A stretch of DNA of 64,000 nucleotides from Candidatus Moraniibacteriota bacterium (GTDB lineage: Bacteria; Patescibacteriota; Minisyncoccia; Moranbacterales; UBA9337), in the NCBI GenBank assembly GCA_049287345.1, contig JBAQFQ010000010.1, forward strand, positions 7,795 through 71,794, written 5' to 3'. How positions within the stretch are numbered: position 1 is the first letter of the stretch; each line of letters begins with the position of its first letter. Shown here piece after piece: positions 50,569 to 63,987 of this stretch. Under the pieces are notes generated by a model, which worked only from the letters and a program-made list of their open reading frames with translations, did not search any database and was not told where the DNA came from. The position numbers and the translations under genes were made by a program.

Positions 50569-50774
50569 TAGGAAAGTCTCTACTAATTACGAATCTGTAC
50601 GAATATACAAAAAAAGTCACAAATTTCTTTATCTATAGGGCAAATGACCATTTTTTAATTCTCAATTTTCAATCAATCTTCAATGATTTAATATCCAGAA
50701 AATTCAATCCTCCACTTCTTAAAATAAATTAAATTTATCATTTCAAAAATACACCCAATTTTACATGGTCTTCC

Positions 50775-50803
50775 GTACAGACGAGGCACTGCCTCGTCTC
50801 TAC
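50775..50803. repeat. Hairpin element GTACAGACGAGGCactGCCTCGTCTCTAC, left boundary of the ORF6N insertion
   Basis: Inverted copy at 51513-51538; shares the GGCACTGCC apex with the 4871 and 16873 hairpins. Confidence 0.75.
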
Positions 50804-50806
50804 AAT

Positions 50807-51427
50807 CTATTTTTTCGCCTCCCTAAAACCTATTACTTTCAACTCTTTATCTTTGGGGTCAGTCATCATTAGTCTGTTGATAATTTTAAATATAATCTTG
50901 AAATTAGATTCATTTTTCTTTTCCATTTTTTCTATTTTATCACGTAGTTCTTTGTGAGTTGAAAGTATTTTTCTCATCCCAATAAACGCTCGCATTATTT
51001 GAATATTCACTTGGATAGCTCGATCGCTTTTAAGAACGCTCGAAAGCATAGCAATGCCTGGTTCGGTAAAAACGTATGGCAGATATTTTATATTTTGACC
51101 CCTGTTCAAGGTCACAATTTGTGACCTTGAAAATTTATCATTTCTTGAAGTCACAATTTGTGACCTTGAGTTTTCATCACTTGAGGTGCCAAATTGGAAC
51201 CCTGAGAAGATATCTGCTTCTTTTTTATTAAGCTGAAACATAAAATCTTCCGGAAATCTTTTTATGTTTCTTTTAACTGCTTGATTGAGAACTTTTGTTT
51301 CTACGCCATAAAGCAACGCAAGATCTTTATCAAATATTACCTTCTCACCTCTGATATAGTAAATCTTTCCGATAATTCTTTCATCAGGAATAATAACTAT
51401 TGATTTTTTGTTTTTAGCTTCGGACAT
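50807..51427 (-). CDS. ORF6N-domain (KilA-N-related) phage-associated DNA-binding protein, inserted between fusA and tuf
   Basis: LALLYGVETKVLNQAVKRNIKRFPEDFMFQL and RSQIVTS...LPYVFTEPGIAMLSSVLKSDRAIQVNIQIMRAF match the ORF6N family. Contains an in-frame 39-nt tandem duplication. Confidence 0.65.
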   Translation of the reverse strand: MSEAKNKKSIVIIPDERIIGKIYYIRGEKVIFDKDLALLYGVETKVLNQAVKRNIKRFPEDFMFQLNKKEADIFSGFQFGTSSDENSRSQIVTSRNDKFSRSQIVTLNRGQNIKYLPYVFTEPGIAMLSSVLKSDRAIQVNIQIMRAFIGMRKILSTHKELRDKIEKMEKKNESNFKIIFKIINRLMMTDPKDKELKVIGFREAKK

Positions 51428-51512
51428 TTTGTTTTATGAAGATTTTACTATGCCTTAATTTTATCACGAAATCACCCCATCATACAAACAAAAATTAAAA
51501 AATACCAATATC

Positions 51513-51538
51513 GAGACGAGGCAGTGCCTAGTCTGTAC
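51513..51538. repeat. Hairpin element, right boundary of the ORF6N insertion (inverted copy of 50775-50803)
   Basis: GAGACGAGGCagtGCCTAGTCTGTAC. Confidence 0.75.
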
Positions 51539-51540
51539 AC

Positions 51541-51577
51541 AAAACAAAAACCTCGACATAGTGTCGAGGTTTTTTTA
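51541..51577. terminator. fusA terminator (bidirectional)
   Basis: CCTCGACA-tag-TGTCGAGG with an A-run before and TTTTTTT after. Confidence 0.85.
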
Positions 51578-51601: not shown

Positions 51602-53734
51602 CTATTTTTTGTCTCCACTGATTATCTCTTGCGCAATATTGGATGGAACTTCAGCATATCTGGCAAATTCCATTACTGATGATGCTCGACCCTGAGTCAT
51701 GCTGCGAAGCTGAGTAGTGTAACCAAACATCGCGGAAAGCGGAACTTCTGTTTCAATTTCTTTAATAATCGCTGTTCCCTCACCCTTGTCGTTAATTTCC
51801 TTAATTATTCCCCGACGAGAATTGATATCACCTACTACGTCTCCCATATATTGCTCTGGAGCACTTATTACAACTTTCATGATTGGTTCAAGTATAATTG
51901 GTTTAGCCATCTTGGCGGCTGATTTGAAAGCCATTGAACCAGCTACCTTAAAGGCGGCTTCGGAGGAATCCACATCATGATATGTTCCATCATAAAGAGT
52001 TGCTTTAACATCCACCATTGGAAATCCAGCTAAAATACCATTTCCCATCGCCTCTTTTATACCCTTTTCTACATGAGGAATAAATTCTTGTGGAATAGCA
52101 CCTCCCTTAATTTCATTAGCAAATTCGAAAATAGAGTCTTCTTTCTTCTTGCCTGATTTTCTTTCCGCCTCTTTTTCCTCCTCAGTCTTCTCCACTTTAA
52201 CCAAAGGTTCAAGACGAATCCAACAATGACCATATTGACCACGACCTCCTGATTGTTTAATATATTTACCTTCAGCCTCAGCATTACCCTTGATAGTTTC
52301 TCGATAAGCCACCTGAGGTTTACCAATATTAGCTTCTACTTTAAATTCTCGCTTCATTCTATCTACCAAAACATCTAGATGAAGCTCACCCATTCCAGAA
52401 ATAATTGTTTGTCCACTCTCTTCATCAGTTCGCACTCTAAAAGTTGGATCCTCTTCAGAAAGTTTTCGTAAAGCAATCGCCATTTTTTCTTGATCAGCTT
52501 TAGTCTTAGGTTCAATAGCGATATCAATCACTGGTTCTGGGAAAGTCATTTTTTCCAAGATTACATGTTTATCCATATCACAAAGAGTGTCTCCAGTAGT
52601 AGTATTTTTGAGTCCTACCAAAGCACCAATTTCACCTACTCCCAAAAATTCGATTTCTTCACGGTGATTAGCGTGCATTCTTAAAATTCGACTAATTCTT
52701 TCTTTTTCCCCCTTAGTTGAATTGTAAACATAAGAACCAGATTTAAGTGAACCAGAATAAATTCTAAAAAAAGTAACTTGTCCCACGAAAGGGTCAGTCG
52801 CCACTTTAAAAGCTAGGGCAGCGAAAGGCTCCTCTTCAGTTGGATGAATATCCAATTCTGCTCCGGTTTTTTCATCCTCAGCTTTTACTGGAGGAAGATC
52901 AAGTGGGGATGGCAAATAATCCAAAACTGCATCCAAAACTAATTGCACACCTTTATTTCGCAAAGCTGTTCCAGTTAAAACTGGGATTAATTTCACATCA
53001 ATCACCGCTTTTCGCAAAGCATCTTTTAATTCCTCTTGAGAAATTTCCTCTCCTTCTAAAAATTTCATTGTTAATTCATCATTTGTTTCAGAAATCTTTT
53101 CTACCAAAATATCTCGACGAGCTTTAGCCTTTTCCATCATCTCCGCTGGGATTTCTTTTTCTACTACTGTCTCACCCATCGCTCCCTCAAATTCATAAGC
53201 TTTCATTTTTACCAAATCAATCACACCAGAAAAATCACCTCTTTCTCCAATTGGAATTTGAATCGCTACCGCCTTAGGGCTAAGTCGATCATGAATTGAT
53301 TTTAAGGCTTTATCAAAATCAGCTCCTTCTTTATCAATTTTATTTATAAAACACATGCGTGGCACACCATATCTATCTGCTTGACGCCAAACAGTTTCAC
53401 TTTGTGGCTCTACACCCTCTTTACCGTCAAAAATAACCACTGCACCATCAAGTACACGTAGTGATCGCTCTACCTCCACAGTAAAATCCACATGGCCAGG
53501 AGTATCGATAATGTTAATTTGGTGTTCTTTCCAAGTACAAGTTGTGGCCGCACTAGTTATAGTGATACCTCGCTCTCGCTCTTGTTCCATCCAGTCCATT
53601 GTTGCTTCTCCCTCATGCACCTCACCAATCTTATGAGTGATTCCAGTATAATACAAAATACGCTCAGTGGTGGTAGTTTTACCTCCATCAATATGAGCAA
53701 TGATTCCAATATTTCTTAGTTTTTTGATATCCAT
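51602..53734 (-). CDS. fusA: Elongation factor G
   Basis: [22 protein letters not shown]-motifs; domains II-V; a lineage-specific Lys/Glu-rich insertion. Confidence 0.96.
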
Positions 53735-60305: not shown

Positions 60306-60536
60306 ACTTCTTAACGTTACATTTATTTAACCCCGTGATTCCAAGGTACTCATTGGAATTTTACGGGGCATACCCACTAATACCTTTTGCTTTTTTAATT
60401 ATGAATTTTTATCTAACATAATTCAACCCCATATTTACTTGTTTTTTAGTCGTTATTGACTATAATTAGTGTATACAATGTATCCAAAAATAACAATATT
60501 ATATATTCTATACAAAAACACTTCGTATATAAACAA

Positions 60537-61475
60537 GTTATCGGAAATAAAGAAAAAACCTTTTTACTTATTTTTATATAATTTCGGCAATTTATTTTTT
60601 TAAATAATTCAAAAAATATGAACAAAGAAAAACCAGAAGTGCAAAAAATTGTTATTGATATGGGTCACACATGGACTCCCGAGGAGAGGCAACAGAAAGA
60701 ACAACGCGAGAGAAATGAAAAAGAAACGGATAATTCCCAAGAGCAAAAAGAATATCCGAAAAAGTTTAGTTCAGCTCGAGAATATATAAAAAATCTCATA
60801 AGCTTATTTGATAATCCTAGCGGTGATGCTGATGAAGAAATAATGCAGGAATGGCAAGAGGCAGAGGCTGATTTGGATTGTGGCAATGAAAGAGCGGTTA
60901 TGGAGAAATTAGAGTATATGGCTGGAGCGCAACGTTCAACTTCCAAGACAAAAAAGGACTCTAAGTTATGGAGAAAGGCTATTTTTGAAATAACAAAAGA
61001 GACTAGTGGAACTTCTCGGCTCATGAATTCGGAAGCAATCAGTGGAGCTCTTTATGATGAATATATGAAATTGGATGAAGAAATGATCAAAGTTTTGGAT
61101 GAAAATCCAGGAGATTTTAATGATAAAGATAGGCAAGAATATAAGAAAGAGGTTTCACGATGGCACAATGCTTTTAACGAAGTGGCGAATAATGGACGTT
61201 TGGAAAATGCAATGATTTTATTAGAAGAAGAAATTAACGATAAGGTTAGAGATGATCATGATTTACGCAGAGAAATTGAACAAGTTACTAAAGGCAAATC
61301 TCCAAATATTGACTATATCAACAGAACTAAAGAAAAAATAAAAGCTAATTCTAACAAGTTAGCTACCTATAGAAGAATGCGAGATTCCTTATATGCTATT
61401 GAATTTAATGATAAAAAATAAATTGCCGAAATTATTTCACTAAGGAATAAAGGTTTTTTCATTACATCCGATAAC
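60537..61475. mobile_element. Single-gene cassette bounded by roughly 53-nt imperfect inverted repeats
   Basis: Left 60537-60590 gttatcggaaataaagaaaaaacctttttacttatttttatataatttcggcaa. The reverse complement of the right end 61423-61475 reads gttatcggatgtaatgaaaaaacctttattccttagtgaaataatttcggcaa. Confidence 0.55.
60618..61421 (+). CDS. Hypothetical acidic protein (267 aa) carried inside the IR-bounded cassette
   Basis: ORF with ATG; Glu/Lys/Asp-rich; no transposase motifs recognisable. Confidence 0.55.
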   Translation: MNKEKPEVQKIVIDMGHTWTPEERQQKEQRERNEKETDNSQEQKEYPKKFSSAREYIKNLISLFDNPSGDADEEIMQEWQEAEADLDCGNERAVMEKLEYMAGAQRSTSKTKKDSKLWRKAIFEITKETSGTSRLMNSEAISGALYDEYMKLDEEMIKVLDENPGDFNDKDRQEYKKEVSRWHNAFNEVANNGRLENAMILLEEEINDKVRDDHDLRREIEQVTKGKSPNIDYINRTKEKIKANSNKLATYRRMRDSLYAIEFNDKK

Positions 61476-61696
61476 AAAGAATGTCTGGTTCAAAAAATTT
61501 GCCGCAGTTAAAACTAAAAGGAGGGCAAATTTTTCCCTCCCGAATCCCGAACTTTTCCGTTTTGCTGCAATTCAGAGTATAATGAAATTAGTAAAGTAAG
61601 TAAGAATATTAAGGTTTTGTGCATAGAAACCAAAGTGCAGGACTTCAGATATTCTTAACGTTAGGCGAAACTTTCTTTCAAATTATTTTTTACTTA

Positions 61697-61755: not shown

Positions 61756-61962
61756 TTACTTCCTCTCATACACAACAAAGAGCTCAGCAATATATCCATA
61801 GCAAGTTGTGATAACCATGGGCTTGTGGTATAGAATTAAGAGTGGCACAATTTGCCAACTGGTTACGAGAATATCTTCCCGTGTTAACCACTTACGGAGA
61901 GTTTTTTCCGCATCTCCAATCGCGTCTTCCGTTTCAAAACTCACTCTTTCTAAGGTTGCCAT
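61756..61962 (-). CDS. Small hypothetical protein (68 aa)
   Basis: ATG with GGAGG 4 nt upstream. Confidence 0.55.
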   Translation of the reverse strand: MATLERVSFETEDAIGDAEKTLRKWLTREDILVTSWQIVPLLILYHKPMVITTCYGYIAELFVVYERK

Positions 61963-62429
61963 GTTACCTCCTTTAATGTTTTCGTAAGAGAGTAAATTAT
62001 CCTAATAACGAGAATCCTCTCTTTGGGTTAAAAGATGAATTCTCACCTGAGCTATTGATAAACCATCTTAACAGAAGCAATTAATTTGTAAAGGCCCACA
62101 GGCAATGGATTAAAAAGTAATTTATATTTTTATACCAAACTAACAAAAATATCTTCTTTGGCTTTGATGAGACAGGCATTCTTTCTGAATTTATTTATTT
62201 GGGAAAAGAATTAACGGAGGAATTATTAGGAGAAAAAATAATAACTTTTCTAGAAATGTATCACAATAATAAAATCAAGAAAAAGATGGAGGCCTTATTT
62301 AAATAACAGTGCTGATTAGCTCCCATCCGATACGCTGTGGCGCTAATTTAACAAAATTAATACCGCAATAAAAAAATCGCGTAGGATATCTCCTGCGCGA
62401 TTTGGCTTAATCCAATAAGCACAATGTGC

Positions 62430-62645
62430 TTATTCACCTTTTTTCGAAAAAAATATTTTAACAATTGCTAGGCTCACCAGAAAACAAACTACGGCAGAGA
62501 CAACTCCCCATATCTCCGGCTTAATCTTAAACCAATACCCAATGTAAATTGTGGGAATAATCAAGAGACAAAACACCATCAAAATCTTATTTATTTCTGC
62601 TAATATGCTTTTTATATCTCCCTTTTCTTCCATAACCCCTCCCAT
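62430..62645 (-). CDS. Small membrane protein (71 aa, 2 TM), hypothetical
   Basis: Two hydrophobic helices. Confidence 0.5.
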   Translation of the reverse strand: MGGVMEEKGDIKSILAEINKILMVFCLLIIPTIYIGYWFKIKPEIWGVVSAVVCFLVSLAIVKIFFSKKGE

Positions 62646-62701
62646 TTAAAATAAATAGCTGCTACTTATCAAATTAACACGCAGCTTAATTTGTCGAAAA
62701 G

Positions 62702-63178
62702 CTACAATTTATTGGCCCCATTCATTGCTTCATTAATGTCACAAATATTATTAACGTAAATAATGCCATCTCCCCCATTTTGCAGGTCTAGTAGACACAT
62801 TTCAATTGGGCTTAAAACGCGCTTAACCTCACCTGGTGGATACCAGAAACCCATTCTATCGGCCATCTCACCACAATGCACACAGCCGACATATGAATTA
62901 CTCTCTTTATCATAAAGCACAGCATATTCTGGCATTTTTTGATCTTTATCCTCGAGAGAATAGAGTGTGATTGGCTGACCAATAAAAATAGCCTCGCCAC
63001 ACCAAGCGCACCTGATGGTCATTTTCTCCAAACAACGATGACAATAGGGAGCTTTTCCATCAATGATAGCGATTTCAAGCTCGCCAGTTTCACCAAAGGC
63101 GGATACCTCATCTGTTTTGAAGGTTTTGTGCCCACAATCAGCCATAATTTTTTTCCTGAAAATATTAAAGAACTTCAT
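62702..63178 (-). CDS. Cys/His-rich putative zinc-ribbon protein (158 aa), hypothetical
   Basis: CGH, CHRC, CAWCG, CVHCG motifs suggest two zinc-binding sites. Confidence 0.55.
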   Translation of the reverse strand: MKFFNIFRKKIMADCGHKTFKTDEVSAFGETGELEIAIIDGKAPYCHRCLEKMTIRCAWCGEAIFIGQPITLYSLEDKDQKMPEYAVLYDKESNSYVGCVHCGEMADRMGFWYPPGEVKRVLSPIEMCLLDLQNGGDGIIYVNNICDINEAMNGANKL

Positions 63179-63354
63179 TTGCTTTCCTCCTTTTTTAAAT
63201 TTTCTAAATTTATGGATTCTGCACTATTTTGACCCTAAATTAAAAAAATAATAATGTCAATAAAAAAGAGCGATATATTTCAATCGCTCCCGGCCAAATT
63301 ATTGACCACTATCCATCAGATTGACTGATAAAAAAACTACCAAGACTACAAGTC

Positions 63355-63555
63355 CTACTTGTTGGAAGATTTAATGCGCTCCCAGATACTGGCGCCCTCA
63401 GCCCAAAAACTCTCGCGCGTTAGGCTGGATATCTTATATAAGAAATAAATATCTGACCCCTTAATGCAGATACCAATAAACTTAGCATCTTTACTAAGCC
63501 CCAATTTGTTGAAAGCTTCTTTGGCTGCCGCTTGAAATTCTGTCCAGTCATTCAT
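63355..63555 (-). CDS. Small hypothetical protein (66 aa)
   Basis: ORF with ATG. Confidence 0.45.
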   Translation of the reverse strand: MNDWTEFQAAAKEAFNKLGLSKDAKFIGICIKGSDIYFLYKISSLTRESFWAEGASIWERIKSSNK

Positions 63556-63756
63556 GGCAATCTCCTCATTTTTTAAATGAACATACTTAACCTTCCTCTA
63601 ACTGCTCACCTAAACTATCAAAAAAAATGACTACTTGCAAGAGTGCAGCATACTTAGTAAGACAATCATAATCTTTCCCCTTCGCATATCCTAAGTTTGA
63701 TTTGCCTCAATTTTTCTGCTAAAATTAGGACGTAATTCCCTTAAATTAAATTGATA

Positions 63757-63987
63757 ATGATACATATTTTAAAAAATATAATCTGGATAGTTGGTTTCAT
63801 AGTAGTGACTGGGTTTGTTTTAAATTATTTTGGCTACGAAATAAATAAAAATTATTTTCAGGAAAGAAAATCTGATTGCCAAGAAAAACTCAAGTTCTGT
63901 CAAAATGAACTATTACACCAAGGTTTAGACAACGCTAAGTGTGATTTTAATTGTCTAGATCCCAAACTCATAATTCGCAAAAAATAA
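63757..63987 (+). CDS. Small membrane protein with a Cys-rich tail, hypothetical
   Basis: ATG at 63757; one TM helix; CxxxC...CxxxC. Confidence 0.45.
   Translation: MIHILKNIIWIVGFIVVTGFVLNYFGYEINKNYFQERKSDCQEKLKFCQNELLHQGLDNAKCDFNCLDPKLIIRKK

Follow-up and report, generated by a model that had tools for sequence, protein, structure and literature searches.

A gene flanked by opposed dif-like sites in a Candidatus Moraniibacteriota genome is probably one cassette of an Xer-type gene-cassette array

An acidic gene enclosed by a long inverted repeat

We analyzed a 64,000-nucleotide stretch (hereafter "the window") of a low-GC (~35%) metagenome-assembled genome of Candidatus Moraniibacteriota, in which a single open reading frame (ORF) is tightly enclosed by inverted repeats. 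The original prediction, made from the DNA letters alone, had described imperfect repeats of 53 nucleotides (nt) around one acidic ORF of 267 amino acids (aa) that lacked transposase features and thus did not represent a classical insertion sequence (IS). The repeats were confirmed at this place but turned out to be rather longer. A repeat search of the window returned one block of 27 nt (60537-60563 / 61449-61475, 89%) and a second of 23 nt (60578-60600 / 61413-61435, 100%), which joined together form one pair of 64-nt arms with about 55 matches in 65 alignment columns. Fainter complementarity extends to 60612 and 61399. No further match to either block with three or fewer mismatches was found in the 64 kb, none of 100 shuffles yielded two block matches, and the alignment of the 5′ flank with the reverse-complemented 3′ flank scored 81 (shuffles, 21.2 ± 3.2). 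The inverted repeat is therefore beyond chance. The description of the enclosed gene was likewise borne out, including its acidic nature (58 D+E versus 48 K+R residues) and the lack of transposase features. The framed gene and its two arms are as follows.

60537..60600, + strand: 5′ arm (left repeat), a D-type half-site with a cassette-specific extension; the ATG follows at 60618
60618..61421, + strand: cargo ORF, 267 aa, isoelectric point (pI) 5.17, predicted to be all-alpha (10 helices)
61413..61475, − strand: 3′ arm (right repeat), extending over the final codons and the stop codon of the ORF, with a D-type half-site at its end

Exact and degenerate scans for other copies of the arms, which had been proposed as a check, retrieved no true copy elsewhere in the window, in IMG/VR, in the JGI metagenomes, or in the GTDB species genomes, and the repeat sequence is unique to this cassette. 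Nineteen metagenome matches to a 20-mer of the arm were rejected as a coding motif (HNFGNLF) or chance. One of these matches, on contig L022 beside a CRISPR array, spans only 22 nt and was judged to be chance. This array (L022 3112-3936; also present on L027 and L028) contains 11 copies of the 36-nt repeat GTTGCAACGATGACCCGATTTAAGGGGATTGCGAC on an unrelated metagenome contig, and its first spacers differ among the three contigs. An Rfam scan of the region from 58 to 64 kb gave no matches.

Dif-like sites and a structured spacer

The arms end in half-sites of candidate recombination sites, of which three were recognized in the window together with an intervening spacer. Two site forms can be distinguished, type A on the proximal and type B on the distal side of each gene.

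60520..60548, + strand: proximal type A site, with C-type arm ACTTCGTATAT, spacer AAACAAG, and D-type arm TTATCGGAAAT
61464..61491, − strand: type B site, inverted, 28 bp, 11-6-11 (GAACCAGACAT / TCTTTG / TTATCGGATGT)
61476..61660, + strand: spacer ("C module", attC-like body), 184 nt, ORF-less, structured
61642..61671, + strand: distal type A site (ACTTCAGATAT / TCTTAACG / TTAGGCGAAAC), a direct repeat of the proximal site type
60520-60548 and 61642-61671: type A form, ACTTCRSATAT-N7-10-TTAnnnGAAAT, with strong dyad symmetry, proximal side of each gene
61464-61491, − strand: type B form, GARCCRSATAT-N6-TTAnnnGATGT, distal side of each gene

The gene lies between two inverted sites whose D-type half-sites point inward, and in the next stretch the C-type half-sites point inward. 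The boundary of the cassette is at G|TT (60537|60538). As judged from its sequence, the proximal type A site appears to play the role of an attI-like or dif-like insertion point. Its conserved arm and spacer recur at the related loci L035-L037 and L039-L041, where the D arm is cassette-specific. The distal type A site is the likely downstream end of a putative excisable unit of 1123 bp (60538-61660). The original prediction had also pointed to a possible target-site duplication. This was not borne out, as the two motifs concerned, AAACAA on the left and AAAGAA on the right, are the central spacers of two opposed candidate recombination sites.

All eight type B sites identified (in the window, L032, L036, and L037) have the 11-6-11 architecture, end in TTnnnnnGATGT, and are located 3′ of cassette ORFs. 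A position weight matrix (PWM) built from these eight sites recovered 61464-61491 in the 64-kb window; the only other match (51727-51754, 15.0 bits) was inside the shuffled range, and no recombination site beyond the three listed above was found in the window except for this match at shuffled level. The arms of both site types resemble the dif sites of E. coli (GGTGCGCATAA TGTATA TTATGTTAAAT; PMC3025954) and B. subtilis (ACTTCCTAGAA TATATA TTATGTAAACT; PMC3025954). Of the 11 arm positions, 8 agree with TTATGTTAAAT in the D arms (TTAnnnGAAAT) and 7 agree with GGTGCGCATAA in C arms such as ACTTCGCATAA.

Spacers between a type B site and the next type A site are 110-185 nt long and contain no ORF. 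Their ends are complementary in nine spacers with at least five different sequences, three of which have a one-base bulge at the same place; in the window, AAGAATGTCTG (61478-61488) can pair with CAGATATTCTT (61646-61656). The window spacer also has an internal hairpin (61492-61503 / 61524-61534), which is followed by a conserved motif that reads CTCGACCCAAATT in the relatives and CTCCCGAATCCCGAAC in the window. An alignment and consensus fold of six sequences predicted 12 pairs overall, with compensatory changes in six of the ten pairs of the main stem, the internal hairpin. The covariance model R1 derived from the spacer scored the window copy at 88 bits and had matches in L036, L037, L040, and L041, but no second match in the window. 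An exact 12-nt direct repeat, TTCTTAACGTTA, occurs at 60308-60319 and 61652-61663. The second copy consists of the spacer and the start of the D arm of the distal type A site, whereas the first abuts the start codon of mnmA and may be a relic junction.

Arrays of unrelated genes in related Moraniibacteria

Related loci were reached by two routes. L035, L036, and L037 were found via the neighboring gene mnmA; the gene order mnmA-cc142-o71-alaS is kept in all three, and differences are found upstream of mnmA. L039, L040, and L041 were found via the recombinase gene described below (72-91% protein identity). Five of these genomes (L036, L037, L039, L040, and L041) contain arrays of unrelated genes, in each case with the recombinase gene (xer) adjacent and divergent to the array. 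The first junction lies 112-115 nt upstream of the xer start codon in L036, L039, L040, and L041, and also in L037. In the window and L035, the proximal site is situated directly upstream of mnmA. The cassettes of L036 encode a DUF218 protein and a 143-aa ORF, those of L037 an APH-like kinase, an HD-domain protein, a small membrane protein, and a GNAT acetyltransferase, and further cassettes are present in the arrays of L040 and L041.

Each array gene in L036 and L037 is framed in the same manner as the ORF in the window, and this layout recurs in L039, L040, and L041. The proximal arm begins with GTTnnnnGAAAT, and the distal arm is an inverted copy of it that reads GTTnnnnGATGT instead. The four variable bases of the arms and the next 12-50 nt are cassette-specific and identical within the two arms of each cassette. 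Across at least nine modules, all xer-proximal arms have the form ...GAAAT and all distal arms the form ...GATGT. Some modules (the small ORF of L037, and L040) have an ORF that is encoded on the other strand and equipped with a promoter and terminator of its own, and their arm polarity is unchanged. This comparison of sequences shows that the flagged repeat consists of the inward D-type half-sites of two opposed, putative dif-like sites plus a cassette-specific complementary extension, and that the gene represents one unit of a recurrent, variable array composed of D modules (the ORF) and C modules (the spacer).

Two features of the L037 locus are recorded here separately. An IS200-type Y1 transposase gene (1006-1467, + strand) splits the GNAT acetyltransferase cassette (1464-1892 / 782-913, − strand), and the L037 xer gene, compared with its L036 counterpart, carries a deletion at the N-terminal end.

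The adjacent recombinase

The gene found upstream of mnmA in L036 and L037 encodes a tyrosine recombinase (Phage_integrase, 1e-41) of ~273 aa that is conserved and XerA-like; no other Xer gene was seen at the array loci. The L036 protein passes the NCBIfam XerA model NF040815 (226.7 bits, cut-off 220) and fails the integron-integrase model TIGR02249 (205.4 bits, cut-off 265), which it matches in two stretches with the middle of the profile skipped. The archaeal XerA structures 4a8e and 5hxy can be aligned with it over the full length, whereas the alignment with Vibrio IntI4 (2a3v, VchIntIA) falls into two pieces, as 24 residues (173-196) replace the 67 residues 175-241 of IntI. An additional domain around patch III defines integron integrases (PMC9668308), and with 24 residues where IntI has 67 this IntI-specific domain is absent from the recombinase. 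More than 4800 homologs at E < 1e-60 were found in Moranbacteria and Parcubacteria, many of them with 70-75% identity, and this wide and conserved distribution fits a housekeeping Xer.

Evidence for cassette turnover

The L036 and L037 loci are 91% identical across mnmA, xer, and the proximal site. Their similarity ceases within ~17 nt of G|TT, and the first cassettes differ thereafter. Conversely, the spacer and junction of the window (61435-61691) share 85% identity over 259 nt with L040 9202-9456, where this copy of the spacer lies 3′ of a different small gene beside xer. L035 has an uninterrupted proximal site, ACTTCGCATATAAATGAGTTAAATGAAAT, and removal of 60538-61660 from the window creates the junction ACTTCGTATATAAACAAG|TTAGGCGAAAC, which matches this L035 sequence, with the gene order mnmA-cc142-o71-alaS retained. 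Moreover, the half-sites to the left of each G|TT track the upstream spacer and those to the right track the downstream gene, which places the crossover at G|TT, as in integrons.

Covariation of the arms and predicted folding

Among seven modules, 90.5% of the arm cells were paired (shuffles, 60.3 ± 2.7%; slid partners, 31-48%), a value that is partly built in because the modules had been recognized partly through their inverted arms. In the arm pairs, 16 of 24 had changes on both sides. Positions 10-11 were unpaired in all seven modules and form an invariant AA × CA mismatch 9 bp from the junction, and the 6-nt versus 7-10-nt site spacers create a small asymmetric loop of 1 × 3 nt. The constant bubble and the sequence differences between cassettes are not built in by the way in which modules were recognized. 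Arm covariation shows selection for pairing, in either DNA or RNA. Conserved mismatches within a stem of variable sequence are also a property of integron attC sites and of the CTX-phage attP hairpin, and are hard to explain by double-strand binding sites alone. With DNA parameters, the reconstituted circle junction was predicted to fold at −59.9 kcal/mol (shuffles, −23.7 ± 3.8 kcal/mol). The predicted fold is consistent with a single-stranded hairpin of two inverted dif-like sites as the recombination substrate.

A putative Xer-type gene cassette

Taken together, the recurrent frame, the different cassettes on similar backbones, and the adjacent xer gene suggest that the flagged gene is probably one cassette of an Xer-type gene-cassette array. 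The earlier idea of a non-autonomous cassette moved in trans stands insofar as the same arm frame encloses unrelated genes beside a tyrosine recombinase gene and close backbones carry different cassettes at the same junction. The repeats are not the terminal inverted repeats (TIRs) of a transposon, however, and the putative mobile unit (60538-61660) is larger than had been assumed.

In the mechanism that we propose, a host Xer encoded beyond the 64-kb window would recombine the two directly oriented type A sites (60520-60548 and 61642-61671), and the gene with its spacer would be excised as a 1123-bp circle. Such circles could re-insert at the proximal site with a crossover at G|TT, as in integrons, and would thereby build arrays. 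More speculatively, the substrate may be a folded strand, in which the excised 3′ arm, spacer, and 5′ arm form one long imperfect hairpin that would keep the AA × CA mismatch 9 bp from the junction and the 1 × 3 nt loop at the site spacers. Such a folded substrate would have its counterparts in integron attC and in the pair of inverted dif-like sites of CTX phage. As the long inverted repeat would be the base of the hairpin stem, this could explain why the arms covary rather than being conserved.

Several observations weigh against the interpretation as an Xer-type cassette array, in addition to the built-in share of the pairing percentage. The window contains only one cassette and no tyrosine recombinase gene within its 64 kb. 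Recombination products (a circle junction, an empty site in the same strain, or an inverted form) were not observed in the assemblies, and L029, the one further assembly of the locus, does not differ from the window in sequence or orientation. The spacers of type A sites are 7-10 nt long rather than 6 nt, and these sites may thus not be ordinary double-strand Xer substrates. Since the recombinase is conserved and widespread, its adjacency to the arrays could reflect the order of housekeeping genes and not function. GC skew showed no switch within the window, so that the proximal site is not demonstrably the terminus dif of the chromosome. Finally, the cargo homologs in L001, L002, L005, and L033 occur in other contexts without such sites.

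Alternative explanations

Other readings of the locus were weighed against the Xer-type cassette array. It is improbable, albeit the least improbable of these alternatives, that the arms act mainly in RNA, by pairing of the 5′ untranslated region (UTR) with the 3′ end, or as repressor-bound DNA, and that the recombination sites are incidental. A role of this type would suit the position of the arms, since 6-17 nt separate the inner end of the 5′ arm from the ATG downstream of it and the stop codon falls within the 3′ arm. The covariation fits pairing in either nucleic acid, and L032 and L002 retain the short complementary stretch AATTTATTTTTT / AAAAAATAAATT around homologous genes. However, single arms folded locally no better than shuffles, and the modules with an opposite-strand ORF that has its own promoter and terminator but unchanged arm polarity (the L037 small ORF and L040) are unfit for a 5′ UTR/3′ UTR role. 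For an operator, conservation of sequence would be expected, whereas the arms differ in every cassette. The paired operator sites considered in the original prediction are thus not supported, since the arm sequences vary freely between cassettes and complementarity alone is kept. RNA pairing would also leave the conserved dif-like half-sites and the cassette turnover between backbones unexplained. The arms may have a role in RNA as an added function.

We consider it very unlikely that the locus is an invertible switch, in which Xer flips the gene between inverted sites relative to an outside promoter. Two inverted sites do flank the gene, a promoter-like region upstream is conserved (60468-60548 is conserved in L035), and single dif modules of Acinetobacter invert between inversely oriented pdif sites (PMC13141974). 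Yet all modules seen, nine or more, have GAAAT proximal and GATGT distal arms, no flipped state was present in any assembly, and both assemblies of the locus share the same orientation. A look-up with MnmA gave no strain or inversion variants of the locus. The two site spacers also differ in length (7 versus 6 nt) and sequence.

There is hardly any likelihood that the locus is a fragment of a canonical integron, with the spacer as attC, G|TT as the R′ core, and mobilization by IntI, although several features would fit one. AAC...GTT triplets are conserved at every junction, one junction (GTTAGGC) is a textbook core, and the site forms a hairpin with covariation. In the relatives, the array is divergent from a tyrosine recombinase that obtains 205 bits on TIGR02249, and the integron-style layout of an array beside a recombinase and an attI-like site, read away from it, is present in L036, L037, L040, and L041. 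With one cassette and no recombinase gene within 64 kb, the layout of the window itself is similar to a cluster of attC sites lacking an integrase (CALIN). However, the recombinase stays below the IntI cut-off (205 versus 265 bits), passes as XerA, and misses the IntI-specific domain. The junctions are 28-bp dif-like sites with 11-bp arms and not 7-bp R and L boxes, and complementarity runs 15-55 bp beyond the crossover into the cassette, unlike in attC. The missing domain and the 11-bp arms exclude a true integron as a claim of membership.

A non-autonomous transposon similar to a miniature inverted-repeat transposable element (MITE), with a passenger gene between TIRs and its transposase elsewhere, would be in keeping with inverted repeats that tightly enclose one gene without transposase features, but this scenario is scarcely credible. 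The flanks GTATATAAACAA and AAAGAATGTCTG do not represent a target-site duplication, and no second arm copy was found in the window, IMG/VR, the JGI metagenomes, or the GTDB species genomes. Each related cassette has arms of its own sequence, whereas the members of a TIR family would have ends in common, and the ends seen here are half-sites of tyrosine-recombinase-type sites. Just as implausible is a functionless accident in which template switching at the 12-nt microhomology AATTTATTTTTT / AAAAAATAAATT placed an inverted copy of the 3′ flank on the 5′ side. This was suggested by L032, in which the 3′ flank and the inner 5′ UTR of the window have counterparts and the outer 5′ arm has none. 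The idea was dropped once L036 and L037 showed the recurrent layout: the two-arm structure and the AAAT/ATGT asymmetry are repeated in no fewer than seven other modules, whose genes are unrelated, and L032 looks like a decayed copy in which the type B site has also been lost.

The cargo protein and its family

The cargo ORF is identical to the NCBI protein WAV16_01580 and had no significant match in Pfam, PADLOC, or PHROG. A structure prediction, one of the checks proposed for this protein, did provide a ten-helix AlphaFold model (pLDDT 79.9), but its structural matches were generic helical hairpins only. The family is small, with 11 clusters at 90% identity and 16 representatives at 50% clustering; the names of two members refer to lineages of the candidate phyla radiation (CPR), and the rest originate from metagenome contigs. 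No significant inverted repeats flank the homologs in L001, L002, L005, L009, L030, and L031, and the flank complementarity in L033 is weak (score 35; shuffles, 19.6 ± 2.5). In L032, the gene ends are near-identical to those in the window, and the 3′ flank shares the inner 38 nt of the 3′ arm, whereas the outer 5′ arm is not shared.

The ends and immediate flanks of the gene (window 60589-60704 and 61332-61459) have 81-88% DNA identity with L032 and L002. The middles of the same homologs are too diverged for blastn, with a protein identity of 45-52%, and these genes are thus mosaic. This pattern suggests recombination or strong constraint at the cassette ends. In L001 (5795-6247) and L002 (2583-3413), the cargo homologs outside arrays have a second gene downstream. 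The one in L002 encodes a Bro-N-domain protein according to its Pfam record; the downstream ORF in L001 looks alike by eye and has no Pfam record. Through this neighbor, the cargo family may be tied to mobile or phage-like DNA. A hairpin element of ~63 nt, TTTTGGGCATTCACCCCTnACCCCTCTnCCCAAAA, occurs at L037 3004-3066, L005 1363-1424, and L030 900-964, with 80-92% identity between Moranbacteria and Campbellbacteria contigs. It is located downstream of two cargo homologs and inside the HD cassette of L037.

Neighboring genes and other accessory regions

Upstream of xer in the more distant relatives L040 (5311-9006) and L041 (7027-8961) we found an ApaLI-type restriction enzyme and methylase, and the same regions contain an SMODS/AGS_C (CBASS-like) gene, a HicA toxin pair, and a SET-domain gene. 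These defense and addiction genes point to a general accessory-gene island in the xer-proximal region.

In the window, four small minus-strand ORFs of 68, 71, 158, and 66 aa (61756-63555), one of them with zinc-ribbon motifs, fill the 2 kb between the cassette and a conserved ORF at 63751-63987. Homologs of these four ORFs were absent from L035, L036, L037, L039, L040, and L041, and the equivalent region of L035 contains other genes (HD, amidohydrolase). The segment represents a variable region without recognizable sites and possibly consists of decayed modules.

A second framed gene is present at another place in the window. Here, a 48-nt inverted repeat (77%; 50768-50815 / 51498-51545), each arm of which contains the GC-rich hairpin GACGAGGCAnnGCCTCGTC, surrounds the ORF 50807-51427 (− strand). 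This ORF codes for an ORF6N-domain protein (Pfam, 8.6e-32). Its neighbors on either side, tuf and fusA, stand next to each other in L039, and the framed gene resembles an independent insertion in the str operon.

Comparison with known systems

The closest parallel in module structure is offered by the dif modules of Acinetobacter (PMC13141974), which have been reported as a plasmid system and in which a C and a D module can be excised together between directly oriented pdif sites. In both systems, discrete gene modules are bounded by inversely oriented dif-like sites, D-inside and C-inside modules alternate with a C+D pair between directly oriented sites, and the same module occurs beside different neighbors, as seen for the window spacer in L040. 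The 11-6-11 sites are also shared (type B, eight of eight), from which type A departs with spacers of 7-10 nt. Unlike in Acinetobacter, the modules described here are located on a CPR chromosome (with mnmA, alaS, and the str operon nearby) and not on Rep_3/OrfX plasmids, and a single XerA-like recombinase gene is adjacent instead of XerC plus XerD being used. The C modules take the form of short, structured spacers that lack an ORF, there is an asymmetry between the site types (6-nt versus 7-10-nt spacers and GAAAT versus GATGT arms), and the half-sites of a module are complementary far past the 11-bp arm and covary.

Integrons, especially sedentary chromosomal ones with lineage-specific attC sites, have a comparable organization. 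Common to both are a fixed insertion point beside a divergent tyrosine recombinase gene and tandem cassettes of unrelated functions, which are mostly single-gene and mostly promoterless. The inter-cassette element keeps its structure, varies in sequence, and retains the AAC/GTT triplets. Further similarities are the G|TT crossover, the match of the cassette 5′ end to its own 3′ site, and an IS inside the array (L037). In contrast to integrons, the recombinase is XerA-like and lacks the IntI-specific domain, the sites are built from dif-like arms of 11 bp, and the crossover falls within the stem and not at its base. Its location inside the stem accounts for the long arm upstream of each ORF, which is the flagged repeat.

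Work by Val and colleagues from 2005 is said to have shown that the single strand of CTX phage folds two inverted dif-like sites into an XerCD substrate. The arrays resemble CTX phage and the integrative mobile elements exploiting Xer (IMEX), elements that integrate at dif, in having two inverted dif-like sequences 60-180 nt apart that are able to pair with a mismatched or bulged center, and, by analogy, in the probable use of the host housekeeping Xer and in tandem arrays at the target. They differ in that the units are one-gene segments of 0.1-1.2 kb without replication or phage functions, with many per array. The target is dif-like and located beside xer, but the GC skew of the window has no switch, so a terminus dif is not demonstrated.

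XerS/difSL is a single-recombinase Xer system whose dif lies beside the xer gene. We know of no cassette arrays at single-recombinase Xer/dif sites. Another system of this kind is XerH/difH (PMC3325230). As in these two systems and in archaeal XerA, the loci studied here have one Xer gene with a dyad-symmetric site nearby, and the best structural and profile matches of the recombinase are to XerA; unlike the arrays, the known single-recombinase systems are described as resolving chromosome dimers.

Implications for gene exchange in CPR bacteria

Integrons have been reported in Bacteria, Archaea, and phages. A literature search of incomplete coverage retrieved no description of integrons in CPR bacteria (Patescibacteria) and none that pairs Xer/dif with this group. 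On the basis of the comparisons above, the system is rated as one that would work like an integron, with sites and a module grammar corresponding to those of Xer/dif modules. The differences lie in the host, the chromosomal setting, the single XerA-like recombinase, the structured ORF-less C modules, and the long covarying arms. A more far-reaching proposal, which we put forward only tentatively and regard as rather unlikely, is that CPR bacteria run an integron-like gene-capture platform with an ordinary Xer, in which a folded "double-dif" hairpin replaces attC and insertion takes place at a dif-like site beside xer with a crossover at G|TT.

CPR bacteria, among them the ultra-small Moraniibacteria, have very small genomes, and little is understood of how they acquire and exchange accessory genes. 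If the interpretation as an Xer-type cassette array is true, it would provide a defined gene-shuffling platform for these organisms, in whose relatives restriction-modification, CBASS-like, and toxin-antitoxin genes occur upstream of xer, although these were not mapped as cassettes. It would also extend the concept of dif modules beyond Acinetobacter plasmids and offer a testable intermediate between Xer/dif and integron attC recombination. Should the broader gene-capture platform exist in CPR bacteria, it would be a living example of the type of Xer/dif system thought to be ancestral to integrons (IntI/attC), and would be one of the chief ways in which these minimal genomes acquire genes.

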